A stretch of DNA of 37,620 nt from Nitrospirota bacterium (GTDB lineage Bacteria > Nitrospinota_A > UBA7883), in contig DRJW01000143.1 of assembly GCA_011052055.1 (NCBI GenBank), positions 1-37,620 on the forward strand, read 5' to 3'. The translations under genes and the position numbers were made by a program. A model generated the notes under the pieces. It made no database searches. It was not told the DNA's origin and was given only the letters and a program-made list of their open reading frames with translations. How positions within the stretch are numbered: the first letter of the stretch is position 1; each line of letters begins with the position of its first letter. Below are positions 7,849-22,809 of this stretch, one piece after another.

Positions 7849-9403
7849 CGCGATTCCGCCAGCCGCGATTTTTATTATTGGAGCCCTTTTTGTTCCATTT
7901 CTGAAAGGAAAGGCAAAGCAGGTTACTTTGCTTGTTATTCCGCTCATTACATTTCTTGATCTTTTGCTTATGCCGGAAGGCTCATACTGGGTTATCCACT
8001 TCCTGGATTACGATATCACTTTTGGCCGAGTGGACAAACTGAGTATGGTCTTTGGATATATATTTACAATCATGTCCTTTATTTCAATCCTCTACGCTAT
8101 TCATGTAAAGGATGATATGCAACATGTGGCGGCCCTTTTATATGTGGGGAGCGCTTTAGGGGCTGTTTTTGTTGGGGATTTTCTGTCACTCTTCGTCTTT
8201 CTGGAGATAATGACGATCACTTCGACATGCATTATATGGTCACGAAGGACAGAGGCGTCTTATTCGGCAGGATTGAGATATATTCTGGTTCATATTTTTG
8301 GAGGGCTTTGCCTTCTCGCTGGTATTCTTATCCATGCGCATCAAACAGGTTCTATTGAGTTTGGGCTCATAGGATTAAATGGACTGGGATCCTATCTTAT
8401 ATTGCTGGGTTTTGGCATAAATTGCGCTTTCCCTGTACTTCATGCATGGCTCCCTGACGCTTATCCTGAGGCGTCAATTACGGGTACCATATTCGTGAGT
8501 GTCTTTACGACCAAAACAGCGGTATACGCCCTGGTAAGGTCGTATCCTGGCACTGAGGCTCTGATAGCGGTTGGGGCTCTAATGACTGTCTTCCCTATCT
8601 TTTTTGCGGTCATTGAGAATGACCTGAGGAAAGTCCTTGCCTATAGCCTGATCAACCAGGTTGGATTCATGGTGGTCGGCATTGGAATAGGCACGGAACT
8701 GTCGCTCAATGGCTCTGTTTCACACGCTTTTACCAACATACTGTTTGAGGGCTTGCTCTTTTTATGTATGGGCGCTGTTATGCATCAGACGGGAAAGATC
8801 AATGCTACGGATTTGGGGGGACTATATAAATCAATGCCCCTGACGGCCGCATTTTGCATCGTAGGCGCGGCATCCATCTCCGCTTTTCCTTTATTTAGTG
8901 GTTTTGTAAGCAAATCCATGATTATCAGCGCGTCTGGTCACGGTGGGATGACGGTTGTCTGGTTTATGTTGCTGTTTGCCTCTGCTGGCGTCTTCCATCA
9001 TGCAGGTATAAAAATCCCATTTTTTGCTTTTTTCTCTCACGACTCTGGTATAAGAACAAAGGAGCCGCCCCTTAATATGCTTATAGCCATGGGGATAGCC
9101 GCCTTTTTATGCATCTTCATAGGTGTATTTCCCGGGTCGCTATATAGTATTCTTCCTTACCCGGTTGATTTTGAGCCCTATACGGCAAGCCATGTTTTGA
9201 ATCAGGTTCAGTTACTCTTTTTCTCCGCATTGGCCTTCTGTCTCCTCATATTGGCTGGAATATATCCAGCGGAAATCAGGGCTATCAATCTCGACGCGGA
9301 TTGGTTCTATCGAAAAGGCGCCAAGGTGTTTTACTGGCTGGCTAGCAGGCGAATGCCCTGGGCCGTTTTGTTTGTCATCTCTGTGGGTTTTGTGATTTAT
9401 TAA
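7841..9403 (+). CDS. proton-conducting antiporter-like membrane subunit (NuoL/M/N-MrpD family), copy 2
   Basis: The track ORF starts at a TTG at 7817. The ATG at 7841 overlaps the upstream TAG. Motifs: FVFLEIMT (TM5 Glu), PVLHAWLPDAYPEA and FPLFSGFVSKSMI (TM12 Lys). The TM7 Lys position reads GINCAF rather than GxSKAA. Confidence 0.85.
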   Translation: MTSAIPPAAIFIIGALFVPFLKGKAKQVTLLVIPLITFLDLLLMPEGSYWVIHFLDYDITFGRVDKLSMVFGYIFTIMSFISILYAIHVKDDMQHVAALLYVGSALGAVFVGDFLSLFVFLEIMTITSTCIIWSRRTEASYSAGLRYILVHIFGGLCLLAGILIHAHQTGSIEFGLIGLNGLGSYLILLGFGINCAFPVLHAWLPDAYPEASITGTIFVSVFTTKTAVYALVRSYPGTEALIAVGALMTVFPIFFAVIENDLRKVLAYSLINQVGFMVVGIGIGTELSLNGSVSHAFTNILFEGLLFLCMGAVMHQTGKINATDLGGLYKSMPLTAAFCIVGAASISAFPLFSGFVSKSMIISASGHGGMTVVWFMLLFASAGVFHHAGIKIPFFAFFSHDSGIRTKEPPLNMLIAMGIAAFLCIFIGVFPGSLYSILPYPVDFEPYTASHVLNQVQLLFFSALAFCLLILAGIYPAEIRAINLDADWFYRKGAKVFYWLASRRMPWAVLFVISVGFVIY

Positions 9404-9453
9404 AGTTATATACCCCGCAGTTTGCGGGAAAATTTATTCGGAGAAGGTTATTC

Positions 9454-11721
9454 ATGGAAGCTAAGGTCGAAGAGTCCCAGGCTAAAAAAAGTAGGGTTCC
9501 GATACTGGTCAAGGTTGCCATCGTCTGGATCGGGGTCTATCTGTTCCTAAAACTGGTCATCAAGCCGCCACTGCCGTCAAGCCTTATCTTTATGTACATG
9601 ACCACAGTGACAGTCGGGCTGACTCTGGCTGTTTCTATTTATGAAAAAATGTTACACGAGGTTTTAGATCCTATCGTATATTTTATTCACGGGGACGATA
9701 CCCGTGGAGCGCCGTGGCGGGCGGCCCGATGGGCCATGTTGATAGCGATCCCCGTTTATGTTGGCTATGGCGGCTATCAGCGAGTGATGCCTAAGTTTGA
9801 GCCTCCTATCGCTTCAAGGGTTATCCATCCTGCCCCACCTCCTGAAGTGGCCGCGCTTTCAAATCCATTCAGGGATGATGAGGCTAACCTTGCGAAGAAC
9901 ATCGCGGAGGGGCGTGTGATATATTTTCAAAACTGCTTGTTCTGCCATGGGGACGCATTGGAAGGCAAAGGGATATTCGCCAGCGGGATCAACCCAGCCC
10001 CGGCCGATTTTCAAGACCCAGGCACTATCGCCCAATTGCCGGAATCCTTTGTTTTCTGGAGGGTCAGCACCGGAGGGCCTGGTCTCCCTAATGAATCTAC
10101 TCCCTGGGACTCATTCATGCCCCGGTGGGAGAAAATTCTCACCGTAGAGCAACGGTGGAAGGTAATTCTATATCTGTATGATCTGACAGGCTGGTCGCCC
10201 CGCACCTGGGGGGAGACAGAAGCCGTAGGCGAGTTCGAGACAGAAGATGAGGAAAAGGATGAGGATAAAGATAAAGAAGTAAAAGAGGGGTCAAAAGAAG
10301 GATCAGATAAGCTTGGTGGGCTTGAGGGCGCCAAGAAAATCTACGTAAAACGTTGCGAGCCTTGTCATGGGGTTAAAGGAGAGGGAGATGGGCCTGCGGC
10401 TAAATTTCTGGTGCCGCGCCCCCGCGACTTCACATGGGGGACATACAAATTTCGCTCCACACCGAGTGGAATCCCACCCACCGATGAGGATTTGTTTCAC
10501 ACTATCCGTCATGGTTTGCCGGGCACAGCGATGCCGAGTTGGGAGCATTTGACTGATGAAGAGATAAAAGGCCTGGTAAAATTCATCAAGGGATTTGCCG
10601 CTGATATTTTTGAGGAGGAGCCAAATCCCCAACCCGTCCAGATGGGTAAGCCGCCCGAAGCTACTCCAGAGCTTATCGCAAAAGGTAAAGAGCTCTTTGA
10701 CAAGGTTAAGTGCTTCGAGTGCCACGGTCGCAAGGGCAGGGGCGATAATATGAAAAAACTGAAGGATGACTGGGGTTTTAAAATTTATCCCAGGAATTTA
10801 AACCATTCATGGGAATTCCATCGCAGGGGAGGGTCGCTTGAGAGCATCTATCTTGCGATTTCGACTGGTTTGGACGGAACCCCCATGCCTTCCTTTAAAG
10901 AGAAACCTTTTTCCCTCTCTGATGACGACCGCTGGGCGGTGGCTCACTACGTGAAGACACTCCAGTCGGAGAGAAAGCTGGGCTACACTGTGCTGGCAAA
11001 GCTGGTTGAGAAGGTGCCTTCCGATTCTGAGGATCCGATCTGGGATAGTGTGGACTATCTGGATATCCCCATGGTGGGACAGGTCGTCCAGGATCCGCGT
11101 ATGTTTAATCCCAGGGTTGACAATATTCGGGTTAAGGCGGTTTACAATGACAAGGAAGTGGCTTTCCGGCTGGTCTGGGATGATACCACCGAAACAAAAC
11201 CGGATGCGTCTTCAGAAATTTTCGAAGACGCGGTTGCGCTTCAATTTCCTGTAAAGATCCCGACTGGGACCGAACGTCCTTATTTTTTGAAGGGTGATAA
11301 AGACAATGCCGTCAATCTGTGGCGCTGGAGTCATAAGCGGTCTAATGCGCTTGAGCTCAACGCGAATGGGGCGGATACGGTTCGGCCCCAGGACGATAGC
11401 GGGCAACAGGTGACTGGTAAGCTTAAGTATGATAATGGCCGATACCAGCTGGTATTTAAGAGGACTCTTTCCACCCCGGACAAGGATAGCGACATCCAGT
11501 TCGAGTCTGGTAAGTTTATCCCGATATCCTTTTTTGCCTGGGACGGCGCAAACAAAGAAACGGGAAAAAAGAGCGCTCTTTCTCCCTGGTTCTTTCTACT
11601 TTTAGAGCCAATCACCCCGGTAACGGTTTATATATATCCTCTAATCATGATCTTTGTGACATGTGGAGCGGAATGGTGGGTCATCGGGAGGATTCGTAAG
11701 AACAAGGGGAGGGTAGTATGA
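9454..11721 (+). CDS. membrane-anchored triheme cytochrome c fused to an EB_dh (ethylbenzene dehydrogenase gamma / NxrC-like) heme-b domain
   Basis: 755 aa, with GGAGAAGG before the ATG.
- N-terminal TM helices.
- Three heme-c motifs: CLFCH, CEPCH and CFECH.
- An acidic linker: ETEDEEKDEDKDKEVKEGSKEGSD.
- A C-terminal domain that by eye resembles PF09459: VAFRLVWDD ... DAVALQFP ... NLWRWS ... ISFFAWDGANKETGKKSALSPWFFLLL.
- A final TM helix: VYIYPLIMIFVTCGAEWWVIG. Confidence 0.75.
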   Translation: MEAKVEESQAKKSRVPILVKVAIVWIGVYLFLKLVIKPPLPSSLIFMYMTTVTVGLTLAVSIYEKMLHEVLDPIVYFIHGDDTRGAPWRAARWAMLIAIPVYVGYGGYQRVMPKFEPPIASRVIHPAPPPEVAALSNPFRDDEANLAKNIAEGRVIYFQNCLFCHGDALEGKGIFASGINPAPADFQDPGTIAQLPESFVFWRVSTGGPGLPNESTPWDSFMPRWEKILTVEQRWKVILYLYDLTGWSPRTWGETEAVGEFETEDEEKDEDKDKEVKEGSKEGSDKLGGLEGAKKIYVKRCEPCHGVKGEGDGPAAKFLVPRPRDFTWGTYKFRSTPSGIPPTDEDLFHTIRHGLPGTAMPSWEHLTDEEIKGLVKFIKGFAADIFEEEPNPQPVQMGKPPEATPELIAKGKELFDKVKCFECHGRKGRGDNMKKLKDDWGFKIYPRNLNHSWEFHRRGGSLESIYLAISTGLDGTPMPSFKEKPFSLSDDDRWAVAHYVKTLQSERKLGYTVLAKLVEKVPSDSEDPIWDSVDYLDIPMVGQVVQDPRMFNPRVDNIRVKAVYNDKEVAFRLVWDDTTETKPDASSEIFEDAVALQFPVKIPTGTERPYFLKGDKDNAVNLWRWSHKRSNALELNANGADTVRPQDDSGQQVTGKLKYDNGRYQLVFKRTLSTPDKDSDIQFESGKFIPISFFAWDGANKETGKKSALSPWFFLLLEPITPVTVYIYPLIMIFVTCGAEWWVIGRIRKNKGRVV

Positions 11722-12482
11722 AAAAGAGAGTTTCTGGCATAGGGGCCTTGGTCTTGGTTCTCGGCCTCGTTGTAATGACCAATGGTTGCTCTCTGTTTGG
11801 AGATAAGTTCGTGGCGATCGGGAAGAAGCTTTTTGACTACCGTTGCGCTGACTGTCATGGAGAATCTGGTAAGGGCGACGGCTTCAACGCGAAAAACCTG
11901 GATTTTGAGCCCAGGGATCTGACAGATTCGGAGGAGAGGGTTCTCGGTGACCTGACCAATGAAGAGATATTTAATACACTATCGCGTAATATAAAAGATG
12001 AAGACGCTTCTGTCGTGCCTTTCATGCCGACTTTTAAAAACACGCTTGCTGAAGCGGAGATATGGGCGATCATCGCTTATGTCAGGACTCTTCATCCAAA
12101 TAACGCTCCCAAGATTGAGTTGACTCCGGAAATGAAGAGGAAAAGGCCAAGGTTCCCCCGGATCAGAAAAGTTGATATTGATCCCGAAATAATGAAAAGT
12201 AAGGAGCATATAGAAAATGGACAAAGTTTGTTTGAAGAGACTTATGGTTGCCTTACCTGCCATAATATCGGGGGTGAGGGGGGCAGGATAGGTCCCAAAC
12301 TGGATCGGGCCGGATTCCGGTCAAATGCGGATTGGCTCTATCGCTGGATCAAGAATCCCCAAGCGATCGAGCCTCGCACCAAGATGCCTAATCTTGGGCT
12401 CACGGATGAGGACGCTATGGATGTCGTGGCGTACCTGAAAACTTTGCAAGCGCCAAGGGGCCCGGATCTGCCCGCTAAATAA
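11718..12482 (+). CDS. diheme c-type cytochrome, lipoprotein
   Basis: ATGA overlap with the upstream gene. Lipobox VMTNGC. Two heme-c motifs, CADCH and CLTCH, each with a downstream Met (FMPTF, TKMPNL). Confidence 0.85.
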   Translation: MKKRVSGIGALVLVLGLVVMTNGCSLFGDKFVAIGKKLFDYRCADCHGESGKGDGFNAKNLDFEPRDLTDSEERVLGDLTNEEIFNTLSRNIKDEDASVVPFMPTFKNTLAEAEIWAIIAYVRTLHPNNAPKIELTPEMKRKRPRFPRIRKVDIDPEIMKSKEHIENGQSLFEETYGCLTCHNIGGEGGRIGPKLDRAGFRSNADWLYRWIKNPQAIEPRTKMPNLGLTDEDAMDVVAYLKTLQAPRGPDLPAK

Positions 12483-12606
12483 GGTAAGAATATTGTATTT
12501 GTAAATAGCTGACCGCTTGCCAGCCTTGCGATTGATAATTTCTAGATACCAGATAACAAATAACGTATAAAGTAAGGATTTATTTTAGAATATGGGGGCC
12601 ATTATT

Positions 12607-13278
12607 ATGAAGAAAACATTTTTTATTTACTGCCTGTCTCTAATGGTTTTTATTGCAGTCCCTTCCTGGGCCGCAGACGGAAAGGCGCTTGTTAAAAGCA
12701 ACAAGTGTGGAAGTTGCCATAAAATGCAGGGGCCAGCCGTTAAAACAATAGCCGAAGTGTTAAAAAGAAAAGCGCCGGATCTGTTTTACGCAGGTAGCAA
12801 ATTCAACAAGGATTGGCTTGTAAAGTACATCCAGAGCCCGACCGTGATTCGGCCCGGGGGAGTTGTGTACACCAATAATATAAAGTTAAATGGAGACCAG
12901 GATGAGCCGGCTAATCTTCTGAAGTGCGCCTCGAAGTTGAGCGCTGGTGACGCGGCGGCGGTCGGTGATTATCTTATGAGCTTAAAAGACGCCACAATGA
13001 AAGTTGGAGTTTTCAAAAAGGCGAAAATTAAAAAAGCCATGGCCAGAAGGGTGATGATGAAAGGGGAGGCTTGTAACGCATGCCACTCTTTTCCTAAAAG
13101 GGGGGGAGGCGTGTCATGCCCCACATTTGAGGGAATTGGAAGCCGCCTCAATCCCGACTGGATGTACAGCTTCGTTAATCACCCGCAAAAATGGGACCCG
13201 AAAGTGTGGATGGCAAAGCGTGATTTAGATGACGCCACGTTGCAATTGATAGTTAACTTTCTTTCTTCCATGAAATAG
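12607..13278 (+). CDS. diheme c-type cytochrome, secreted
   Basis: The track ORF is 12592-13278. The ATG at 12607 follows GGGGG and yields a signal peptide, MKKTFFIYCLSLMVFIAVPSWA-AD. Heme-c motifs CGSCH and CNACH. Confidence 0.8.
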   Translation: MKKTFFIYCLSLMVFIAVPSWAADGKALVKSNKCGSCHKMQGPAVKTIAEVLKRKAPDLFYAGSKFNKDWLVKYIQSPTVIRPGGVVYTNNIKLNGDQDEPANLLKCASKLSAGDAAAVGDYLMSLKDATMKVGVFKKAKIKKAMARRVMMKGEACNACHSFPKRGGGVSCPTFEGIGSRLNPDWMYSFVNHPQKWDPKVWMAKRDLDDATLQLIVNFLSSMK

Positions 13279-13292
13279 GAGGATTATATATT

Positions 13293-13676
13293 ATGAAAAA
13301 CATAAACAAATCGATGAAAATTTTAACAATGTTTCTGCTGGCCGCTCCTCTGATCATGGTTTCATTTGGCCTGGCGTCAGCAAAAGAAACCGCCACAGAC
13401 AACTATAAGCTTTACTGTGTTCAATGCCACGGGACAAAAGGAACGGGCAAGGGTATTAACGCGCCTTTTTTAAGCGTTGCCCCGCGAAATCATACCAGCG
13501 CCAAGGATATGGGCGAGCTTTCCGACGATAACGTATTCAAGGCGATTAAATCGGGCGGTGGAGCGGTCGGTAAATCGACCCAAATGCCTTCGTGGGGGGC
13601 AGTGATGACTGATGATGAAATTCATGATATGGTTAAGCGCTTGCGCGTGATGTGCAAATGCGAGGGGAAGAAATAA
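13293..13676 (+). CDS. monoheme class I cytochrome c, secreted
   Basis: AGGAGG precedes the ATG. A signal peptide is present. Motifs: CVQCHGTKGTGKG and the distal-ligand context STQMPSW. Confidence 0.85.
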   Translation: MKNINKSMKILTMFLLAAPLIMVSFGLASAKETATDNYKLYCVQCHGTKGTGKGINAPFLSVAPRNHTSAKDMGELSDDNVFKAIKSGGGAVGKSTQMPSWGAVMTDDEIHDMVKRLRVMCKCEGKK

Positions 13677-13891
13677 CAAACAGTATCCGCGCAATTTTGT
13701 GAGCGCGCAGAGCGCTTGCGGTGGATGTAGTTAAGCGGCATTCACCGCAGGTGTCTCAGTGTTGATGATACGGCCATTATTTTACCGCTCGGCGGGCTTT
13801 ATACATTGAGGCGAAGGCTATGGCAACGAGGCGGAGTTTGAGATCACCTATAGTCAAAAGTCGCTCCGTCACATTCGTTGGCGGCGGCAGA

Positions 13892-14449
13892 ATGTCAAAA
13901 TATTTATCGCGTTTGATGACAGCGATTATTATCTGCGTAAGCCTTGCTGTTTCAAGCGTATATGCGCAGGATCTTTCAGACCATCACAAGATCAACATAG
14001 ACCCGACTATGAAAAAGAAGATGAGTCCTGAGGCGCTCAAATCGATTCAGAGGTTTTTTAAGGACGCCGAGCTTGCGATAGAGAAGGAAAACCTGGACGG
14101 CTTGATGAGTCTATATTCGGATCACTATAAGAACGCCTCACATACGAAGCAGTCAGCCCGCACTATCTGGATCAGGATTTTCGAAAAATTTGATGACATG
14201 GCGTCTGTTCACAATATGCGGATGAAGATGTATTCTCCAGATAGTAATGTCATTATTATCCGCTGTAGCGGACTTCTGATGGGCAAACCTGTTGGAGAGG
14301 CTGAGCTTATCACCATCGACAGCTGGACCAATGAGGATCACGTTTTATCCAGGGTGAAAAAGGGAGACGCCTGGAAGCTGATTGGCACTGCCGGTCAAAA
14401 AAAACGCAAGCGTCTCTGGTTCGATAAGCCGATGCATCCGTTGTTCTGA
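13892..14449 (+). CDS. secreted hypothetical protein, NTF2/SnoaL-like fold suspected
   Basis: The track ORF is 13820-14449. The internal ATG at 13892 gives a signal peptide, MSKYLSRLMTAIIICVSLAVSSVYA-QD. The pattern LDGLMSLYSDHY ... WKLIG resembles DUF4440/SnoaL-type proteins. The fold call is tentative. Confidence 0.55.
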   Translation: MSKYLSRLMTAIIICVSLAVSSVYAQDLSDHHKINIDPTMKKKMSPEALKSIQRFFKDAELAIEKENLDGLMSLYSDHYKNASHTKQSARTIWIRIFEKFDDMASVHNMRMKMYSPDSNVIIIRCSGLLMGKPVGEAELITIDSWTNEDHVLSRVKKGDAWKLIGTAGQKKRKRLWFDKPMHPLF

Positions 14450-14614
14450 CCCCTATTTATTAAAAGGCTCTGGAGCGTCGGTTGGCGCGAAGACAATTTC
14501 CGGCCCGCAATAAACGCAAGCCAGCGTTAGGTTATATCCAGGTTGAATCTCTTTTGTTAAACGGACGTCTTATATAAAGCTTTTTTAACCGTGGGTTCGT
14601 CTGGAGAGGAGTGT

Positions 14615-15760
14615 ATGGGAATTGAGACATCGGGCGAAAATCGTTCGATCTGGTCGGCCATCGCCCCCCAAAAGCTGAACTACAGACATTACTTCGGCGG
14701 AATGGCCCTGTTGTTGATCGTCGTTCAGCTTATCACCGGGCTCTACATGATATTTTATTACGAGCCCTCCCTGCGCGAGACGTATAAAACCGTTCAATTT
14801 TTTAACAATGAGACGACGCTTGGAGCGTTGACCAGGAATATCCACAGGTACAGCGCGTATTTTATTGTAGTCGCCATGTTTATCCATTTCTGGAGATCTT
14901 ATTTCAGGCTTGACTACCAGGGAGGGCGTAAATGGCTCTGGGTGACGGGCATTCTCCTGACAACAATCATTTCCGGCTCCGTTATCAGCGGAACCATTCT
15001 ACCCTGGGAGTGGAAAGGCTACTGGACGATGGAAATGTTTAACAACTGGCTTAAGACCATTCCGGTGATAGGCGACGATCTCTATATCTTTTTCATGACA
15101 AGCTACACACCCACGCGAAACTTTGTTTTTCACGACATAATGCTTCCGATAATCGCTTTTATCCTGCTGGAAATTCATTGCATAGGAAAGCTCAGAAAAA
15201 GAGGACTAACAGATTATTTTCTGCGTCATTTCATCGCTATAGCGCCTCTGTTGCTTATAATAGCCGGTTTTAGCCTTCTGTTTCCCATTCCCACCGAAGA
15301 TCCTGAAATCATTCCACTACCTATGGCAGGCCGATACATTCCCTCGCCAGAGTCATTTTTTCTCACTTTTCTTCTGCCCTACTGGTACTTCCCGCCCCGG
15401 TCATTTAGCATTTATCTATTTTGGATTCCATTTGTTCTGCTGATATTTGCTCTGCTATTGCCGTTCATCATCAAAAAGAAGAGCAAGGCAAAGCTTGATC
15501 TGGAAAATCCGCTCCGCAGAAAACTCGCCAGGATAATATACGTTGGAGCAGGAGGCCTGTTGCTCATTTTTGTAGCCGCCGGTTTTTTTTGGGGAAGCGC
15601 AAAATCTCCATGGATGGGCTGTAACAGCTGTCATAACGCCGCGATGGGAGACCGAATGGGCATTCCCCCGGTCACTTATAAAGATACGATACGAAACCCC
15701 TTGCTTATGGATAAAAGATGGATGATAAGGCACTGGTATGAGCCACAAGTTGTCTGGTAA
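14615..15760 (+). CDS. cytochrome b6-like protein (b6 plus subunit-IV-like helices) with a C-terminal heme-c site
   Basis: The track start is a GTG at 14591. The ATG at 14615 follows GGAGAGGAG.
- Helix B His pair NIHRYSAYFIVVAMFIH (H-x13-H).
- Helix D pair FHDIMLPIIAFILLEIH (H-x14-H, b6 type).
- PWEWKGYW.
- PESFFL at the place of the PEWY motif.
- An extra C-terminal TM helix, then CNSCH (15620-15634). Confidence 0.85.
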   Translation: MGIETSGENRSIWSAIAPQKLNYRHYFGGMALLLIVVQLITGLYMIFYYEPSLRETYKTVQFFNNETTLGALTRNIHRYSAYFIVVAMFIHFWRSYFRLDYQGGRKWLWVTGILLTTIISGSVISGTILPWEWKGYWTMEMFNNWLKTIPVIGDDLYIFFMTSYTPTRNFVFHDIMLPIIAFILLEIHCIGKLRKRGLTDYFLRHFIAIAPLLLIIAGFSLLFPIPTEDPEIIPLPMAGRYIPSPESFFLTFLLPYWYFPPRSFSIYLFWIPFVLLIFALLLPFIIKKKSKAKLDLENPLRRKLARIIYVGAGGLLLIFVAAGFFWGSAKSPWMGCNSCHNAAMGDRMGIPPVTYKDTIRNPLLMDKRWMIRHWYEPQVVW

Positions 15761-16367
15761 CCAAATATTTAAAGCCGGTTTTTATATTGCCGTCCTAGCT
15801 TTTGTTACAGGAGGTTGTGACCAGAAAATTGTGGGCCATCCTGAAAAAGTCACAAGTGACTATATAAAAGCGGTGCAAAGGAATGACTTTAAGGCTATTT
15901 ATAAACTAAATTTCGACACTTCCAGAAGTAGCAAATATCTTAAGTGCTCGGATGAGAAAGCCGAGGAAAAAATATGTGAGCAGAATTTCAGGGAAAATAA
16001 AACCATCTACGAAAACGTGGAGCTCAACTTGTCTCCAGGAGTCCGTTGGACTGAAAAGTATTATTTCCCGGCGTCGGCGCTGATAGATATCGGCGAGCCA
16101 TATCCTCCCGTTGCCGCAGGTGAAGACGACATAAACTCCAAATACGAGAAGGCGGTGTCGGTTTTTATTCCCGTGAAAGTGGAATACCCAGACCAAGATG
16201 AGGCTCCATCACAAGATGATCGTAAAATAAAAACCGCCAGTTTCGAATGTGTGCTCCGCAAAATCAGGGAAGGTGGAAATGTACGCGTTTATTCAAATGA
16301 TACCAAGTGGTATTTCGCCGGGTGCGTTTTTAATTCTTTATCGGCCACATATCATAAAGGTGGATAA
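15738..16367 (+). CDS. lipoprotein, unknown function
   Basis: Overlaps the cytochrome b stop by 23 nt. Lipobox FVTGGC. I recognise no catalytic motif. Confidence 0.6.
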   Translation: MSHKLSGNQIFKAGFYIAVLAFVTGGCDQKIVGHPEKVTSDYIKAVQRNDFKAIYKLNFDTSRSSKYLKCSDEKAEEKICEQNFRENKTIYENVELNLSPGVRWTEKYYFPASALIDIGEPYPPVAAGEDDINSKYEKAVSVFIPVKVEYPDQDEAPSQDDRKIKTASFECVLRKIREGGNVRVYSNDTKWYFAGCVFNSLSATYHKGG

Positions 16368-16520
16368 ATTGGTTTTGACTAAATTCGAATCTGGTAATTC
16401 GATTTGACAGATCAATATATGGGAATTTGGAATATTTTGATTGAACAAAATGGAAAATATTATCCCCCAGGATGCCTGCTTTCAAGCGGCAAAAGCTCCT
16501 AAATACAATTTATTTCACTG

Positions 16521-16535
16521 TGACAAATTTTGTCA
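16521..16535. promoter_or_regulatory. 7-1-7 inverted repeat TGACAAA-T-TTTGTCA, candidate operator
   Basis: A perfect 7-bp-arm palindrome, immediately followed by ATAAAT/TATTAT -10-like hexamers. It sits in the 385-nt AT-rich spacer upstream of the cytochrome c gene at 16753. Confidence 0.35.
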
Positions 16536-16752
16536 TAAATATTATTTTTACCTTCGCTTTTACCCTTTCAATTGCAAAGCTTGGGCAAAGATAGACCGAC
16601 AGTGTAACAGTATTGTTACGCTTATGCGCATGAAAAACCGGCCACTCGATTATATGCGAGTAAAGGTATATATGTTGCTCTAAAGCTTACCAAACTAGTA
16701 CTTTGTGTAAATCCAAATTGGAAACAGTCAATACTGATGGAGGGGTAAGGGC

Positions 16753-17883
16753 ATGAGATTAAGATCAATTATCATTTGCTTTATGGCGTTAGCCTTCGTG
16801 TCGTCAGGCCTGCTGACGCCTGACTATGCGGACGCCGCTAGGAAGAAGAAAACAAAGGCGGAGCTAAACGCCGCCAAGAAATCGGGGGATCTTTCAGAGT
16901 CGCAGGCGGAAAAGTTCCGCAACGCGTACGGGGCAGAGGCCGATGAAGCCAACATTGAGTCTTTTGAGACAAAGACCAAGAAAACTGGCTTGGGTAACTC
17001 GACTTACGGCGTAGTCGGGTTCGACTATTTGACCGGAATAGGCAAGGTCGCTTCCGATCCGTCACAGATCAACGAGAAAACCTTTAAACTCAAATCGGCC
17101 AATAAAAGCCCGCTTGAAGGCCTTATGAAGAAGCGCTTTAAGCATAAATGGACCGGACAATACAACGATACAGAGTCTGGATGGACCGGAAAAACCGGCG
17201 TGACGGAGGTCTGGTTCCGCAAGCATGATTCAGGCTCCAAGCTGGGCGCTGATTACAACGCATGGGTGAACCAGTGGAACAATCTTACTCGTCCCGGCCA
17301 TAAAAAAGGGGAGAAAGGGGCTTTCACAACCCCTGTCGCCGGCGCTGATCCCGATCAGGGCGCTCATTGGTTCTCTTTTTATTGCGTGCATTGCCACGGT
17401 TGGACCGGCAAGGGTGACGGGCCTACAGCGGCCATGTTGGATCCCCGTCCGCGTAACCTGACCAACGGCAAATACACCAACTTTGTCTCTAACGTCGATA
17501 TCTTTACCATGATCAAAGGTGGCGGCCTGGCCCGCAACCTGTCTCAGGCGATGCCTCCCTGGGGCAACGTTCTTCAGGATCAGGATATCTGGAACACCGT
17601 CGCCTTCATACGCACATTGGCCGACAAGCCGAAATACGTCCCGGATCCAAGCGACGTGACTGCGGCTAACGCCAAAAAATCACAGGAGTTCCAGGATATG
17701 AACGAGGAGCTTGAGCTACCTGGTGTCATGGCTGGTCGTGGAGTAAACAAAGGCGGCTATAACTCAGTGGGTGGAGGCAGGCTTGCCTCAGAGAAGACCG
17801 GCGTGTCTGTAAAAGAGACATCCGGTGAGAACCCATGCGCCAGGCAGGGCGATTATGGAGAAACCAGGCAGTATGATAAATAA
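16753..17883 (+). CDS. monoheme c-type cytochrome with a long N-terminal extension, secreted
   Basis: GGAGGGG precedes the ATG. A signal peptide is present. One heme-c motif in the context FYCVHCHGWTGKGDGPTAAMLDPRPRNL. This resembles heme domain 2 of the 755-aa protein (CEPCHGVKGEGDGPAAKFLVPRPRDF). Distal SQAMPPW. Confidence 0.8.
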   Translation: MRLRSIIICFMALAFVSSGLLTPDYADAARKKKTKAELNAAKKSGDLSESQAEKFRNAYGAEADEANIESFETKTKKTGLGNSTYGVVGFDYLTGIGKVASDPSQINEKTFKLKSANKSPLEGLMKKRFKHKWTGQYNDTESGWTGKTGVTEVWFRKHDSGSKLGADYNAWVNQWNNLTRPGHKKGEKGAFTTPVAGADPDQGAHWFSFYCVHCHGWTGKGDGPTAAMLDPRPRNLTNGKYTNFVSNVDIFTMIKGGGLARNLSQAMPPWGNVLQDQDIWNTVAFIRTLADKPKYVPDPSDVTAANAKKSQEFQDMNEELELPGVMAGRGVNKGGYNSVGGGRLASEKTGVSVKETSGENPCARQGDYGETRQYDK

Positions 17884-17924: not shown

Positions 17925-17955
17925 AAAGCCCCGGTAATTTACCGGGGCTTTTTTA
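17925..17955 (+). terminator. rho-independent terminator
   Basis: An 11-bp stem (aaagccccggt / accggggcttt) with a 5-nt loop, running into a T tract (17949-17955). It lies 42 nt after the stop at 17883. Confidence 0.85.
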
Positions 17956-18082: not shown

Positions 18083-19027
18083 ATGATAGAAGTAAAGCAT
18101 CTAACAAAAGTTTACGGTGAAGCACGGGGTATAGAAGATATAAATTTCACCATGGAGCGTGGTGAAATCATGGGGTTTCTTGGGCCCAACGGCGCAGGGA
18201 AAACCACCACTATGCGGATACTCACCTGTTTTATGCCGGCCACCAGCGGAACCGCCAAAGTGGCTGGATACGACGTATTCGAAGACTCGCTGAATGTCCG
18301 CCGAAGGATAGGCTATCTCCCTGAAACGGTGCCTCTTTATACAGACATGCAGGTACCGGCCTATTTAAAGTATGTAGCCGGCCTCAAAGATGTCCCGTGG
18401 AAGAAGATAAAGAGCAGAGTGGGTAGGGTGATGGAGCAAGTGGGGCTTTCCCACATGGCGCATAAATATATAGGGGAGCTTTCAAAAGGATACCGGCAAA
18501 GAGTGGGGCTTGGCCAGGCTCTTATAAACGATCCTGAAGTGCTGATCCTCGACGAGCCCACTATCGGACTCGATCCGCAACAGATAATCGAAATCCGCTC
18601 CCTGATCAAAGGGCTAAGCGGCGACAGGACGATAATACTTAGCAGTCATGTTCTTCCTGAAGTCAGCATGCTGTGCGGCCGCGTAATCATAATTGACGAG
18701 GGGAAGCTAAAAGCCATCGACACTCCGGAAAACCTGGTGGCCAAGCTTCAAGCCTCCGACAGTGTAAAGGCCCGCATCTCCGGCCCGGCCGATTCTGTTA
18801 TCAGCGCCCTCAAAGGGATTGAGGGTGTTAAAAAAGTGGAGTCGTCGGGCGCCGTCGGCTCTTCCGGTGAATACGTTGTGGAATTTGTAAGAGGATTTAA
18901 CGGATCGCACCTGCTTGCGCGCGTAGCGGTTGAGAGGAAATGGGACCTTTACGAATTGACGCCGATCAAAATGAGCCTGGAGGACATATTTATTCATATT
19001 GTCACCGATGAGGACAGCTCTTTATGA
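18083..19027 (+). CDS. ABC transporter ATP-binding protein (ABC-2 / GldA-like)
   Basis: Walker A GPNGAGKTT, Q-loop, signature LSKGYRQR, Walker B LILDEPTIGLD and the H-loop SSHVL. Confidence 0.9.
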   Translation: MIEVKHLTKVYGEARGIEDINFTMERGEIMGFLGPNGAGKTTTMRILTCFMPATSGTAKVAGYDVFEDSLNVRRRIGYLPETVPLYTDMQVPAYLKYVAGLKDVPWKKIKSRVGRVMEQVGLSHMAHKYIGELSKGYRQRVGLGQALINDPEVLILDEPTIGLDPQQIIEIRSLIKGLSGDRTIILSSHVLPEVSMLCGRVIIIDEGKLKAIDTPENLVAKLQASDSVKARISGPADSVISALKGIEGVKKVESSGAVGSSGEYVVEFVRGFNGSHLLARVAVERKWDLYELTPIKMSLEDIFIHIVTDEDSSL

Positions 19028-19803
19028 GGAACTTTTTTTTCATTTTCGCAAAAGAGACAAAATCGTATTTTAACTCTCCGGTCGCCTTTGTCGTGCTGAC
19101 CATTTTCTCCGCTCTGACTGGCTATTATTTTTACAACATTTTCGCCTCGTTCAGTACGCTAAGCTTTCAGGCGCAGACCAATCCCGCTCTCATAAACCAG
19201 TATGGAGCCTTTAATGTAACGGAATTCGTGATACGACCTTTTTTCGGGATCGTAAGCGTTGTCATGCTTATCATCATGCCGATGCTCACCATGCGCTCGT
19301 TCGCCGAAGAGAAAAAAACCGGAACAATGGAGCTTCTCCTCACCTTTCCAGTCCGAGACAGCGAGGCGATACTCGGCAAATTCGCCGGGTGCATGGGTAT
19401 TTTCGCTATCATGCTGGGTCTCTCTTTTCCGGCGATGCTTCTTGTGGAATATTTTGGCGACCCGGAATGGGCCGTAATCGCGACAGGTTACATAGGTCTT
19501 ATTATGATGGGAGCGGCGTTTATCTCTCTTGGGATTTTCATGTCGTCGATAACGGAAAACCAGATCATCGCCGCTGTCCTTTCTTTTGCCTCGCTGATGA
19601 TCCTGTATATGGTGGGATATACAGCCGGCCTGGCCGGGGAGATGGTCGGTCGGGTTCTCGAATACATCTCCTTTTCTTTCCACTACGAAAAATTTGCCAG
19701 AGGTGTGGTAGACACTTCGGATGTTGTCTACTACCTTCTTTTCACTATCATGTTTCTTTTTCTTAGCATGCGGTCACTCGAATCCAAACGGTGGAGAGGA
19801 TAA
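19024..19803 (+). CDS. ABC-2 type transporter permease (GldF-like)
   Basis: ATGA overlap with the ATPase gene. 259 aa with six hydrophobic helices, typical of ABC-2 permeases. Confidence 0.8.
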   Translation: MRNFFFIFAKETKSYFNSPVAFVVLTIFSALTGYYFYNIFASFSTLSFQAQTNPALINQYGAFNVTEFVIRPFFGIVSVVMLIIMPMLTMRSFAEEKKTGTMELLLTFPVRDSEAILGKFAGCMGIFAIMLGLSFPAMLLVEYFGDPEWAVIATGYIGLIMMGAAFISLGIFMSSITENQIIAAVLSFASLMILYMVGYTAGLAGEMVGRVLEYISFSFHYEKFARGVVDTSDVVYYLLFTIMFLFLSMRSLESKRWRG

Positions 19804-19807
19804 GCAA

Positions 19808-21382
19808 ATGGTTTCACCAACTCTGATTATAGCTGTTATCAGCGTAATTCTGATTGCGGCGGGGCTTAGTCTTTACGCCATAGGCGGAGCTATGTCGATT
19901 CAAACCGCCGGAATTTTATGGGTAGGCTTAATGCTTGCTCTGTTCTTGCTCTATGCCCGTTTTAAAGACATCAGAAAAGCGCTGGTCGGACGAAACGCAA
20001 AATACGGAGCCAACATGGCGGTTGTGATAACGGTCTTTTTCGGGGTTCTCGTTTTCATGGCGATATTGGGCCATGCTCACAACAAAAGGTTCGACTTTAC
20101 GAAAACAGGCAGGTTCACCCTTTCATCGCAAACCAAAAAGATTCTTTCAACTCTGGAAAAACCGGTCAAGGCCATAGCCTATTACAGGTCCGAGTCGGGC
20201 ACCATGCACGCAAGGCAACGACAGGCCGCGCGAGACTTGTTAGAGGAATATTCCAATCTTTCAAAAAACTTCACCTTCACATTCATCGATCCGGACCGCA
20301 ACCCTGGGCTGGCTTCAAAATATGGTGTGTCCGAGTACCGCATTATTATGCTTATGTCTGCCGGCAAACAGGTAAAAGTCGGCTCAGAAAGAGAGGAGAA
20401 ACTGACCAACGGCCTTATAAAGCTCATAAGAAAAAAGCAAAAGTATATTTACTGGGTCAAAGGCCACGGGGAAAAGGACCTGGCCTCCACAAAAAAAGAT
20501 GGCTACAGCGCCGCCAGGGACGCCATTCTCTACGAGAATTACGAGATCAAGGAGCTTTTCTTGATGAGAGAGAAAAAAGTTCCAGATGACGCTACCGTGG
20601 TAGTCATCGCAAGTCCCAAAAAAGAGTTTACAAAAGATGAGCTGGAAAAAATAAACCAGTATTATCTCCGGGGAGGGGCTATCTTTGCGCTTATCGACCC
20701 CGGTCATCCTCCCGGATTTCAGACATGGCTGGAAAATTACGGATTCAAACTTCAAAGTGACGTGATCATAGACCAGCAGAGCCAGCTTTACGGAGCCAAC
20801 GCCCTGACACCGGTGGTGTACGCCTATCACAAAAAACATCCTTTGACCCGGGATTTTTCATTGGCTTCATATTTTCCCATAGCTAACTCAGTTTACATTG
20901 ATGAAGATCCAAAGCGCGGACGGTATCAGCTGGCCCTTACCGGGCCTAACAGCTGGACTGAACTTGATAAAGACCAGCTGGAGTCAGGAAACGCGCAATA
21001 CAATGAAGATCATGAAAAAAGAGGCCCGGTTCCAGTGATGTCCGTGACAACAGTGGCGACAAAAGGAGAGAAGGACAAGCAGGGGGCAAAAGCGGATATC
21101 TATGGGAAATTCGTGCTCGTTGGTGACTCTGATTTTGCGAGTAACACCAATATAAACCTTGCTGGCAACGGGGACCTGTTTCTCAACACGATAAGCTGGC
21201 TCGCCGAAGAGGCCAACCTGATCGCGGTGCGCGCAAAGAGGAAAAACATAAAGCCTGTGGTTCTGACAGTCAGCCAGGGCAGGGCTATATTCTGGATTCC
21301 TGTGGCGATGGTTCCATCTATTGTATTGATGGCGGGGATAGGGATATACAGTCGCAGACGGTGGTTCCGGCATGACTTTTGA
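19808..21382 (+). CDS. GldG-like ABC transporter auxiliary protein
   Basis: The track ORF starts at 19721, inside the permease gene. The ATG at 19808 follows GGAGAGGA and the permease stop. N- and C-terminal TM anchors surround a large extracytoplasmic domain, in the typical position after GldA/GldF-like genes. Confidence 0.7.
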   Translation: MVSPTLIIAVISVILIAAGLSLYAIGGAMSIQTAGILWVGLMLALFLLYARFKDIRKALVGRNAKYGANMAVVITVFFGVLVFMAILGHAHNKRFDFTKTGRFTLSSQTKKILSTLEKPVKAIAYYRSESGTMHARQRQAARDLLEEYSNLSKNFTFTFIDPDRNPGLASKYGVSEYRIIMLMSAGKQVKVGSEREEKLTNGLIKLIRKKQKYIYWVKGHGEKDLASTKKDGYSAARDAILYENYEIKELFLMREKKVPDDATVVVIASPKKEFTKDELEKINQYYLRGGAIFALIDPGHPPGFQTWLENYGFKLQSDVIIDQQSQLYGANALTPVVYAYHKKHPLTRDFSLASYFPIANSVYIDEDPKRGRYQLALTGPNSWTELDKDQLESGNAQYNEDHEKRGPVPVMSVTTVATKGEKDKQGAKADIYGKFVLVGDSDFASNTNINLAGNGDLFLNTISWLAEEANLIAVRAKRKNIKPVVLTVSQGRAIFWIPVAMVPSIVLMAGIGIYSRRRWFRHDF

Positions 21383-21456
21383 GTTTAAAAGGTTTTTTAC
21401 CGAATCAACGTCGCCTGGAAGACTACCCATAGCTTTTTTGAAGAGATAATCCTTGG

Positions 21457-22809
21457 ATGAATTATTTCAAGACTACGTTCTGGTGGATCATCGTTCTGGC
21501 GGCGGTGGGGGGGTACAGTTACCTTGACTATGAAAAAACAAGAGTCGAAGAGATTCAAAAAGATGAAGCGACGCGGCTGTTTCCTTTTTATCCCAAGGAT
21601 ATTCTGTCGATTATTCTTAATAAAGGAGATAGGGTGATCGAGTTGGAGCGATGGGAGGAGGGCTGGAGGATGGTCGCTCCCATAAAAGTCAAAGCGGAAA
21701 GCAAAGCGGTGGAGAAGTTCCTCGGATACATAACCGATTCGCGTAACGACGCAGACTATATAATGGATCCCGATCCTTCTCCCCAAAGACTTGTGGAGTT
21801 CGGGCTCGCCGATCCTGAAGTTAGCGTGACGCTCAAAGTAGGCAAACAGCTAAACGAATACACGCTCCAGTTCGGCGCCAGAGCCCCCACCAAAGGAGTC
21901 GCTTTCGCCAGGCTCAAAGGTGAAAAGGCTGTCTACAGAGTCCTGTCGTATATGCGCGCCGAGGCGGATAAGGATGTATATTACTTCAGGGACAAATCAG
22001 TTCTTCGTCTTAATCCGTTGATGATCGATCAGCTTGTAATAAATCGAAAAGAAGGTTCCATCAGGGTGAAACTGCCGCAAGACGGCAAATGGGAAATTGA
22101 GAAACCTATCAAGGCGCGGGCAGACCATAATAAAGTGTTCGAAATTCTTGGGATGTTCGCAAATGCCCAAGTTAAAAATTTTATTTCCGAGAATAAAAAC
22201 AACTTGAAGGCTTACGGTCTCGATAAGCCGGACATAGAGCTTATGCTCTGGCAGAGCGGCGACTCCGAACCGACATTGAAAATAGAGGTCGGCGCCAGAA
22301 ATCCTGAAAAACGGGGGTATTTTGTCTCGATGTCTGACAGGGACAACGTGTTTCTACTGGAAGAAGACTTGATAAGCGCCATCCCCAGAGGCGCCAATGA
22401 TTTAAGAAGCAGAGACCTCCTTTTTTTCGAGAGCGACAAGTTGAGGAGGATCGAGATACGAAGACCTAACAGGTCTGTCGCGCTGGTTCGTGACAAAGAC
22501 AAGGAATGGAGAAAAAATAATGTAGATGGGGAGAAAGTTGATTTTAATCTGGTAAAAGAAATGCTGAGCGGGGTGCTGGAGTTGAAAATAAGTGATTTTA
22601 TCACCGATTCTCCTAAAAGCTTAAAAGCGTACGGTCTGGATCCTCCAGAGATGAAACTTCTGTTGTGGCCGGAAAAAAGCGCGGTGCCCATTTTCCTAAG
22701 CGTAGGGTCAAAGACGCCCTCAGGAAATGTTTACGCCATGTCCGGCGCGCAGGGCTCCGTTTTGGCGCTTGATAAGAGCGTAAAACGGATATTAAAAATT
22801 ATTTTATGA
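21457..22809 (+). CDS. DUF4340-like protein
   Basis: An N-terminal TM anchor. Repeated modules are present (VEFGLADPEVSVTLK, KAYGLDKPDIELMLW, KAYGLDPPEMKLLLW), as in DUF4340 proteins that follow GldG homologues. Confidence 0.65.
   Translation: MNYFKTTFWWIIVLAAVGGYSYLDYEKTRVEEIQKDEATRLFPFYPKDILSIILNKGDRVIELERWEEGWRMVAPIKVKAESKAVEKFLGYITDSRNDADYIMDPDPSPQRLVEFGLADPEVSVTLKVGKQLNEYTLQFGARAPTKGVAFARLKGEKAVYRVLSYMRAEADKDVYYFRDKSVLRLNPLMIDQLVINRKEGSIRVKLPQDGKWEIEKPIKARADHNKVFEILGMFANAQVKNFISENKNNLKAYGLDKPDIELMLWQSGDSEPTLKIEVGARNPEKRGYFVSMSDRDNVFLLEEDLISAIPRGANDLRSRDLLFFESDKLRRIEIRRPNRSVALVRDKDKEWRKNNVDGEKVDFNLVKEMLSGVLELKISDFITDSPKSLKAYGLDPPEMKLLLWPEKSAVPIFLSVGSKTPSGNVYAMSGAQGSVLALDKSVKRILKIIL

Follow-up and report, generated by a model that had tools for sequence, protein, structure and literature searches.

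The question raised by the contig DRJW01000143.1 (assembly GCA_011052055.1), of which positions 1–37620 were analysed and are called the window below, is what enzyme is served by a 755-amino-acid (aa) protein that joins an EB_dh domain to three c-type haem motifs and to transmembrane (TM) helices at both of its ends. EB_dh proteins are the haem b gamma subunits of type II dimethyl sulfoxide (DMSO) reductase enzymes, in which the haem is ligated by Met and Lys (PMC8840923, PMC8387239), as the initial annotation of the window had correctly stated. Two roles had been offered there for the fusion, namely a membrane docking and electron-entry point for a periplasmic alpha/beta module encoded elsewhere, or a stand-alone haem b/c wire inside a membrane complex. 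The latter is the better supported of the two, by virtue of a conserved pairing with a cytochrome bd-like gene: the 755-aa protein is likely to belong, as an integral subunit, to a membrane redox complex of the cytochrome bd-like (OR-N2) type and is then not the orphan gamma subunit of a molybdoenzyme.

The constant partner of the 755-aa protein is a CydA-like, bd-like oxidase subunit encoded just upstream, and not a missing molybdenum enzyme. Neighbourhoods were counted over 81 related loci fetched from named genomes (designated L001 and so on), and in 68 of these the gene immediately upstream of the fusion gene, in the same orientation, encodes a homologue of the 844-aa bd-like protein of the window; the exceptions are for the most part truncated contigs. 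Scanned as a single sequence, the 844-aa protein matches PF01654 weakly (E=0.048, aa 85–565) and Cytochrom_C at aa 696–790; PF01654 is matched by 37 of the 38 members of its family, at best with 3e-27. The family profile also matches four solved CydA subunits (including 9r2g_A, 5.8e-12, and 5doq_A, 1.3e-11), the matches covering the N-terminal helices with the conserved His (His19 equivalent) aligned. Histidines H92, H200, H256, H409 and H559 are invariant in the family, and hydropathy gives approx. 14 hydrophobic segments ahead of the C-terminal anchor. In the major nitrite oxidisers Nitrospira and Nitrospina, the terminal oxidase is presumed to be of the OR-N bd-like kind; according to the literature on OR-N oxidases, the bd-like subunit lacks the Q-loop by which true cytochrome bd binds quinol, and it is presumed to reduce O2.

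Both members of this pair are composite proteins. The 755-aa protein corresponds to two adjacent genes in 36 of the 81 loci and is fused as in the window in 37; in the split loci the first gene encodes a monohaem cytochrome c with three TM helices and the second a dihaem c protein with the EB_dh domain and a TM helix, the gene boundary coinciding with the acidic linker (aa 249–290) of the fused form. Similarly, the C-terminal TM and haem c part of the bd-like protein is a gene of its own in at least 42 loci, where it stands between the bd-like and fusion genes. The conserved core is therefore a four-gene array, i.e. the bd-like subunit, a TM-anchored cytochrome c, the 3-TM cytochrome c and the dihaem c/EB_dh/TM protein, of which the first two and the last two are fused in the lineage of the window. 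Fusion of adjacent core genes argues for one complex, in which their products would be in physical association. Moreover, starts and stops are closely spaced or overlapping from 3474 to 12482, and this spacing, together with a terminator-like hairpin after the last gene, suggests that the co-directional array at 3474–17883 is a single operon. The second MrpD gene and the fusion gene are 50 nt apart, and the short GC-rich hairpin that lies between them at 9414–9428 (6-bp stem, CCCGCAGTTTGCGGG, then an A/T-rich tail) could serve as an RNA processing site or as an attenuator inside the operon.

Among the closest described systems are the operons of OR-N2 bd-like oxygen reductases, which, according to the supplement to the preprint of Murali, Gennis and Hemp (bioRxiv 10.1101/2021.01.16.426971), comprise an EbdC-like subunit, multiple cytochromes c and a CydA-like protein with approx. 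14 TM helices. The operon in the window likewise encodes an EbdC homologue and multiple cytochromes c, and its CydA homologue keeps the His19 equivalent; it differs in the cytochrome c fused to the C-terminus of the CydA-like protein and in a cassette of MrpD-type genes that splits the operon. By gene content, it is a putative member of OR-N2 as opposed to OR-N1. The fusion protein itself resembles alt_NxrC (Lucker et al. 2013), which combines one to three haem c sites with a haem b domain like that of DMSO reductases and may or may not have TM helices (PMC3578206), and which was proposed as an alternative gamma subunit of nitrite oxidoreductase (NXR) in Nitrospina gracilis and Nitrospira moscoviensis (PMC3578206, PMC6606698). 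As in alt_NxrC, three CxxCH motifs, an EB_dh domain and TM helices are present, and the gene is clustered with a bd-like oxidase and membrane-bound c-type cytochromes; unlike alt_NxrC, the version in the window forms one protein with the 3-TM monohaem cytochrome c that precedes it (so also in the 37 loci above), has Lys at the position of the Met haem ligand and lies in a window with no NXR genes nearby.

The docking role offered in the initial annotation repeats the published alt_NxrC hypothesis (PMC3578206, PMC6606698), in which the protein would serve as an alternative NXR gamma subunit and membrane anchor, its EB_dh domain docking a periplasmic NxrAB-type module encoded elsewhere and passing the electrons of nitrite on through the c haems to the membrane chain. 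Such an anchor would address the membrane attachment of NXR, which is unexplained by a soluble NxrC (PMC3578206), and it agrees with the labels of the contig (Nitrospirae/Nitrospirota) and of its closest relatives (Nitrospinae), as well as with the position of Kuenenia NxrC as the nearest solved-structure relative of the EB_dh domain (E=7.8e-18, and a Foldseek match). In Nitrospira, Nitrospina and anammox bacteria the family is also conserved, with high transcript levels (PMC3578206, PMC6606698), although alt_nxrC transcripts in N. moscoviensis were 2.5- to 25-fold below those of the NXR subunits (PMC6606698). The gene neighbourhoods, however, point elsewhere. The absence of molybdopterin or 4Fe-4S genes noted earlier for the 37.6 kb was borne out by Pfam scans of the main open reading frames (ORFs) of at least 120 aa, which detected no such domains, and by a search of six-frame ORFs of at least 60 aa, which detected no CxxCxxCxxxC motif. 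No NarG/NxrA- or NarH/NxrB-type gene was found within approx. 10 kb in the 81 loci, including those from Nitrospira, Nitrospina and Brocadia metagenome-assembled genomes (MAGs), when NarH/NxrB-like poly-ferredoxin ORFs were sought by a Cys-motif regular expression and large ORFs were also inspected.

The hosts point in the same direction as the neighbourhoods. More than 100 near-full-length homologues of the 755-aa protein were present among the matches listed, and a scan with one genome per species returned at least 538 matching stretches; the family occurs in hundreds of genomes, with record titles including Nitrospinota, Nitrospirota, NC10/Rokubacteria, Gamma- and Alphaproteobacteria, Chloroflexi, Gemmatimonadota, a Brocadia MAG, Magnetococcus and others. 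Members from Sedimenticola, Thiodiazotropha, Rokubacteria and Rhodobacteraceae come under titles that give no hint of nitrite oxidation, and many of the host groups, S. hydrogenitrophicus among them, are not known to us as nitrite oxidisers. Furthermore, the 755-aa protein scores 121.1 bits against TIGR03477, under the cutoff of 169.85, and the Met ligand is absent, the ligands varying by clade. Taken with the bd-like neighbour, these points disfavour the docking of a distant alpha/beta module, and we consider an NXR anchor unlikely. Because the EB_dh/c-haem protein is encoded beside a bd-like subunit in many phyla, and in none of the 81 loci near NxrAB-type genes, the reading of alt_NxrC shifts from an NXR anchor toward a dedicated electron-input subunit of the oxidase.

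Within approx. 10 kb, then, no type II DMSO-reductase partner was found, and the only molybdenum enzymes found near the loci are AioA-like; other large ORFs there encode AcrB, YhdP, ClpB or regulators, or are, in DNA of high GC content, probably spurious ORFs on the antisense strand. Of the proteobacterial loci, 13 have an AioA-like gene (Rieske_3 + Molybdopterin + Molydop_binding) 4–7 kb downstream of the bd-like and fusion genes (L053:12901–19832, Sedimenticola hydrogenitrophicus; L014, L026, L030, L035, L036, L038, L040, L045, L049, L050, L070 and L071). The flanks of this gene were scanned in L053 and encode SCO1/SenC, two dihaem cytochrome c peroxidases and a Rieske protein, a neighbourhood that we take to resemble the published iodate reductase cluster idrP1P2BA. 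In marine Nitrospinota (L082/L083:1–566), an AioA-like gene and a HEAT-repeat protein flank the MrpD-containing cluster. From this recurrence one could suppose that the 755-aa protein is the electron acceptor or donor of an AioA/IdrA-like molybdoenzyme encoded elsewhere, its c haems exchanging electrons with the Rieske subunit, but no AioA-like gene is present in the window or in its two closest relatives, L001 and L002, and most loci are without one. We also know of no Aio-type enzyme that uses an EB_dh subunit. This partnership appears very unlikely and, even if true, would leave the 755-aa protein acting within the bd-like complex. In two further loci, from Nitromaritima and Nitrospinaceae, a multicopper-oxidase-domain protein of approx. 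1650 aa adjoins the alt_NxrC-type gene (L080:14471–19486 and L081:13196–18121, both on the minus strand), which echoes the multicopper oxidase in the NXR region of Nitrospina (PMC3578206).

The architecture first read from the 755-aa translation, i.e. N-terminal TM helices, three CxxCH motifs, an EB_dh domain and a final TM helix, is the one on which the ORF, Pfam, the AlphaFold2 model and Foldseek agree, and the motifs FRLVWDD, ALQFP, NLWRWS and FAWDGANKETGKKSALSPWFFLLL are all in the translation. The acidic linker is likewise present, but it sits between haem c domains 1 and 2 and not beside the EB_dh domain; it is variable and gapped in the homologue alignment and contains a disordered stretch (256–287) in the model. 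Pfam assigns three Cytochrom_C/Cytochrome_CBB3 stretches and an EB_dh match (PF09459, aa 527–706, 84.8 bits, E=1.3e-23, cutoff 33.3). In the AlphaFold2 model (36 homologues; predicted local distance difference test, pLDDT, 80.2; predicted template-modelling score 0.75) the N-terminal helices are at 17–34, 42–62, 64–79 and 86–111, and the TM segments at both ends of the protein are backed by hydropathy. P41, P73 and R92 of the N-terminal bundle are conserved in the homologue alignment, in which C161, C164, H165 and M222 of the first haem c domain are invariant. Since the CxxCH domains come after an odd number of N-terminal TM spans, the four haem domains all fall on the periplasmic side, so that the protein, according to the model, would be tethered to the membrane at both ends. 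Coordinates of all features are collected in the table.

Features of the bd-like/alt_NxrC-type operon and of the 755-aa fusion protein in the window (EbdC residue numbers are our own count from the alignment)
Feature	Position	Strand	Basis or remark
Cytochrome bd-like (CydA-like, OR-N-type) membrane subunit, 844 aa, with C-terminal TM helix and monohaem cytochrome c	3474–6008	+	CxxCH at aa 708
MrpD/NuoL-like antiporter-type subunit a, 485 aa	5998–7455	+	PF00361 E=1.6e-45, PF00662, NF006236 546 bits
41-aa protein, one TM segment, cassette member	7452–7577	+	ORF, hydropathy
88-aa protein, two TM segments, cassette member	7582–7848	+	ORF, hydropathy
MrpD-like antiporter-type subunit b	7817–9403	+	PF00361 E=7.8e-41; NF009310 724 bits, cutoff 564
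755-aa fusion: 3-TM monohaem cytochrome c + dihaem c/EB_dh haem b/TM protein (alt_NxrC-type)	9454–11721	+	ATG start
N-terminal TM helix bundle, aa 17–111	9502–9786	+	Model and hydropathy
Haem c domain 1, aa ~135–245	9856–10188	+	Pfam, motif; CLFCH at 161–165
Acidic disordered linker, aa 249–290	10198–10323	+	Composition, pLDDT <50
Dihaem cytochrome c module, aa 291–506	10324–10971	+	CEPCH at 301, CFECH at 420; homologous to Kuenenia Kustc0457
EB_dh (DOMON-like) haem b domain, aa 527–717	11032–11604	+	PF09459, sequence and fold matches
Lys613 (AAG) at canonical Met ligand position	11290–11292	+	Aligned to NxrC Met155, EbdC Met108
Lys706 codon at canonical Lys ligand position	11569–11571	+	Aligned to NxrC Lys305, EbdC Lys201
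C-terminal TM helix, aa 724–749, then basic tail	11623–11700	+	Hydropathy, model
Dihaem cytochrome c, 254 aa, signal sequence or anchor	11718–12482	+	Pfam, hydropathy
Dihaem cytochrome c, 228 aa	12592–13278	+	Pfam, hydropathy
Monohaem cytochrome c, 127 aa	13293–13676	+	Pfam, hydropathy
209-aa protein, one N-terminal hydrophobic segment	13820–14449	+	No haem motif, no family match
Membrane cytochrome b, b6/PetB-like N-terminus, C-terminal CxxCH	14591–15760	+	CNSCH at aa 344
209-aa protein	15738–16367	+	No family match
Monohaem cytochrome c, 376 aa, last gene of array	16753–17883	+	
Terminator-like hairpin, 12-bp stem then T run	17925–17951	+	Ends the co-directional 3474–17883 array

The EB_dh domain superimposes on EbdC (2ivf_C, target template-modelling score 0.82) and NxrC (7b04_C, 0.65) in Foldseek and matches both by sequence as well, sharing with them the DOMON-like beta-sandwich and the conserved Lys ligand position; its fold is also similar to that of non-haem CBM9 modules. 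EbdC and NxrC each consist of one domain, are soluble or have a single anchor, share their loci with alpha and beta subunit genes and use Met/Lys ligation, whereas the protein in the window has four TM helices and three c haems and lacks alpha/beta genes nearby. The type II DMSO-reductase gamma subunits further include SerC, ClrC and DdhC; from this group the 755-aa protein is set apart by Lys at the Met position and by its scores, with the EbdC model NF042980 giving 52 bits against a cutoff of 400, in addition to the TIGR03477 result above. The middle two haem c domains (residues 291–506) are homologous to Kustc0457, the dihaem cytochrome c partner of the hydroxylamine oxidoreductase (HAO)-like reductase Kustc0458 of Kuenenia (PDB 6h5l_B), with a Foldseek target template-modelling score of 0.90 at a root-mean-square deviation of 1.7 A and a phmmer E-value of 2.6e-54 at 42% identity. 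Unlike Kustc0457, the module in the window forms part of a larger membrane protein, and no HAO-like gene is present in the window.

A PF09459 match and the Met/Lys pair had been named in the initial annotation as the marks of an EB_dh haem b domain. The former is found, and of the latter Lys706 is kept, but the Met position, occupied by Met155 opposite Lys305 in NxrC (PMC8387239) and by Met also in the Met/Lys pair of EbdC (PMC8840923), is Lys613 in the window. Lys at this position is unique among the 196 sequences of the family. The codon, AAG, differs from ATG by one base, and a sequencing error was therefore considered; it was rejected because three slightly different sequences from three contigs agree. 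The ligand columns differ between clades, here named from record titles: NC10/Rokubacteria have Met at 613 and Lys at 706; Gammaproteobacteria have His at both 613 and 707, this pairing being found in 34 of the 35 His613 sequences; Nitrospira have Phe or Trp at 613, with Lys at 706 and Met at 707; and several Nitrospina-group MAGs (L078–L081) have Asn at 613, Lys or Arg at 706 and Lys at 707. Met/Lys is the commonest set across the family. Such chemically sensible covariation suggests that the haem has been retained and its ligation retuned from clade to clade. Four loci (L064, L072, L061 and L030) carry two tandem modules of bd-like, cytochrome c and alt_NxrC genes (e.g. L072:1–6078 and 6874–12424), and the tandem copies in L064 and L072 have unlike ligand sets, M/K/M and L/R/R.

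One may also ask whether the EB_dh domain binds haem b at all, or whether it is a degenerate DOMON/CBM9-like scaffold in what would then be a trihaem membrane cytochrome c. The Lys in place of Met, the likeness to non-haem CBM9 folds and the lack of any invariant His, Met, Lys or Tyr within the domain across the homologue alignment would all agree with a loss of haem, as would column 706 in the window's own clade, where K and R occur at roughly equal frequency. However, the domain is strongly conserved, the ligand columns covary as described, Met/Lys prevails in the family and Lys706 is present in the window protein itself, which makes a haem-b-less scaffold quite improbable. Within the window's clade Lys706 occurs in 3/3 non-Met613 sequences vs 6/16 with Met613 (one-sided p ~0.09, calculated by hand), a difference on which we base no claim.

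The genes that separate the two fused core genes in the window form a block, MrpD/~42 aa/~90 aa/MrpD, which is conserved as such. Its first gene overlaps the stop of the bd-like gene by 11 nt. In L001, L082 and the Mrp operon of Desulfacyla (L084), ORFs of 44, 45 and 42 aa correspond in position to the 41-aa ORF, and the 88-aa ORF has counterparts of 81, 84 and 98 aa, respectively. For subunit b the listed ORF starts with TTG at 7817, while a 520-aa database copy implies ATG at 7841. Thousands of homologues of subunit b are found at approx. 70% identity, and the cassette is highly conserved across phyla. In Desulfacyla (L084:5898–9773) it makes up the 3' end of a canonical Mrp operon (MnhE-F-G-MbhD-MbhE/MnhB-MrpC-MrpD-...). 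It would seem that the bd-like operon acquired the four-gene cassette as one unit. The layout of bd-like gene, cassette and alt_NxrC is also found in L001, L002 and L072 and, in the split form, on marine Nitrospinota contigs (L082/L083) that are indexed in many samples. An EB_dh-only protein of 343 aa is encoded in L082. Literature searches for an MrpD/bd-like cluster in Nitrospinota returned papers on Manganitrophaceae only.

There, the complex TO_2 of 'Ca. Manganitrophaceae' was described as a bd-like protein with two MrpD-like subunits and two cytochromes b, one accessible from the periplasm and one embedded in the membrane, and was reported as restricted to this family (PMC9040806); one entry of the Manganitrophus core-gene table has two Cytochrome_CBB3 domains and EB_dh, with two TM helices. 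By described composition, all five components are in the window cluster at 3474–15760, here on a contig labelled Nitrospirae/Nitrospirota. The core of bd-like gene, MrpD cassette and alt_NxrC is also in a gammaproteobacterial MAG (L002) and in the marine Nitrospinota L082/L083, although a membrane cytochrome b was not found near the core in these three. From composition, the published restriction of TO_2 to Manganitrophaceae looks too narrow, and the MrpD-containing version, which had been described for manganese oxidisers alone, seems to have a wider distribution. All of the elements are thus already in the literature, namely alt_NxrC, the EbdC-like subunit of OR-N2 and TO_2 with its two MrpD-like subunits; new details are the Lys at the canonical Met haem ligand position and axial ligands that differ between clades. 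The 755-aa protein is best filed as a doubly fused alt_NxrC/OR-N2 accessory subunit in a TO_2-like operon, and not as a type II DMSO-reductase gamma subunit, because the score cutoff, the Met ligand, the alpha/beta association and the single-domain architecture all fail.

In the complex that we propose, the N-terminal helix bundle and the C-terminal helix would anchor the 755-aa protein, and its three c-type haems and one EB_dh-type b haem would be displayed in the periplasm as a wire. This wire would take electrons from the periplasmic cytochromes c encoded alongside and hand them to the haems of the CydA-like subunit, the putative reducer of O2. The MrpD-small-small-MrpD cassette and the membrane cytochrome b/c may also be part of the complex in the window, and on account of their presence electron flow is probably coupled to ion translocation, quinone chemistry or both, by analogy with Manganitrophus TO_2, for which coupling to ion translocation, the quinone pool or both was proposed (PMC9040806). 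Domain content, fold, topology, gene pairing, operon layout and the history of fusions are observed, whereas the association of the subunits, the direction of electron flow, O2 as acceptor and ion coupling are inferred. Four points weigh against the assignment to a bd-like complex as drawn here. O2 reduction and subunit contacts are assumptions for any OR-N complex; gene adjacency is compatible with an additional transient partner such as NXR; the likeness to Manganitrophus TO_2 is one of described composition only; and the binding of haem b by the window protein is not certain, because the axial ligands are not conserved in the family and Lys here takes the place of Met.

To our knowledge, no OR-N bd-like oxidase has been purified or solved, and the gene family of the 755-aa protein has been described but never studied biochemically. 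One cultured isolate, Sedimenticola hydrogenitrophicus SB48, does carry the module, however, and may prove more tractable than slow-growing nitrifiers. Beyond the assignment of the protein itself we put forward, as a tentative and rather doubtful proposal, that the bd-like subunit, the haem b/c wire and the MrpD cassette, found here and in abundant marine Nitrospinota, could represent an unrecognised class of redox-coupled ion-translocating complexes that extends beyond manganese oxidisers. It might act as a pumping terminal oxidase or, driven by the motive force, transfer electrons uphill to quinone via the cytochrome b/c, with the EB_dh ligands switched by clade (Met/Lys, His/His and possibly Lys/Lys here) to tune the potential to the donors. 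Added interest comes from the ligand variation, the wider distribution of the MrpD-coupled version and the recurrent AioA/IdrA-like neighbourhood in other genomes.

Downstream of the fusion gene, whose stop is overlapped by 4 nt by the start of the 254-aa cytochrome, the array continues with genes that are shared to a varying extent with related loci. A homologue of the 254-aa cytochrome follows the fusion gene in both L001 and L002, homologues of the 228-aa and 127-aa cytochromes lie upstream of the bd-like gene in L001, and the 209-aa protein encoded at 13820–14449 has a homologue in L001 only, among the loci compared. The membrane cytochrome b matches PF00033 (E=1.2e-31) and PF13631 and has six hydrophobic segments; its best NCBIfam match is NF040969, a Geobacter-type ExtP cytochrome b, and no Rieske partner for it was found within the cluster. 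Right after the respiratory operon, an ATP-binding cassette (ABC) transporter set (ATPase, ABC-2 permease, ABC_transp_aux/DUF7088 and DUF4340) is encoded at 18083–22809, and the same set follows the respiratory operon in the Nitrospinae-labelled relative (L001:17338–22024). Further along the window, a 914-aa protein (31219–33963) combines a membrane region like that of the major facilitator superfamily with a spermidine-synthase-like domain and tetratricopeptide repeats. A 600-aa protein (34737–36539) with a YNCE/lactonase-type beta-propeller, a nitrous-oxide-reductase propeller repeat and a cupredoxin-like domain may, judging from these domains, be a copper redox protein.

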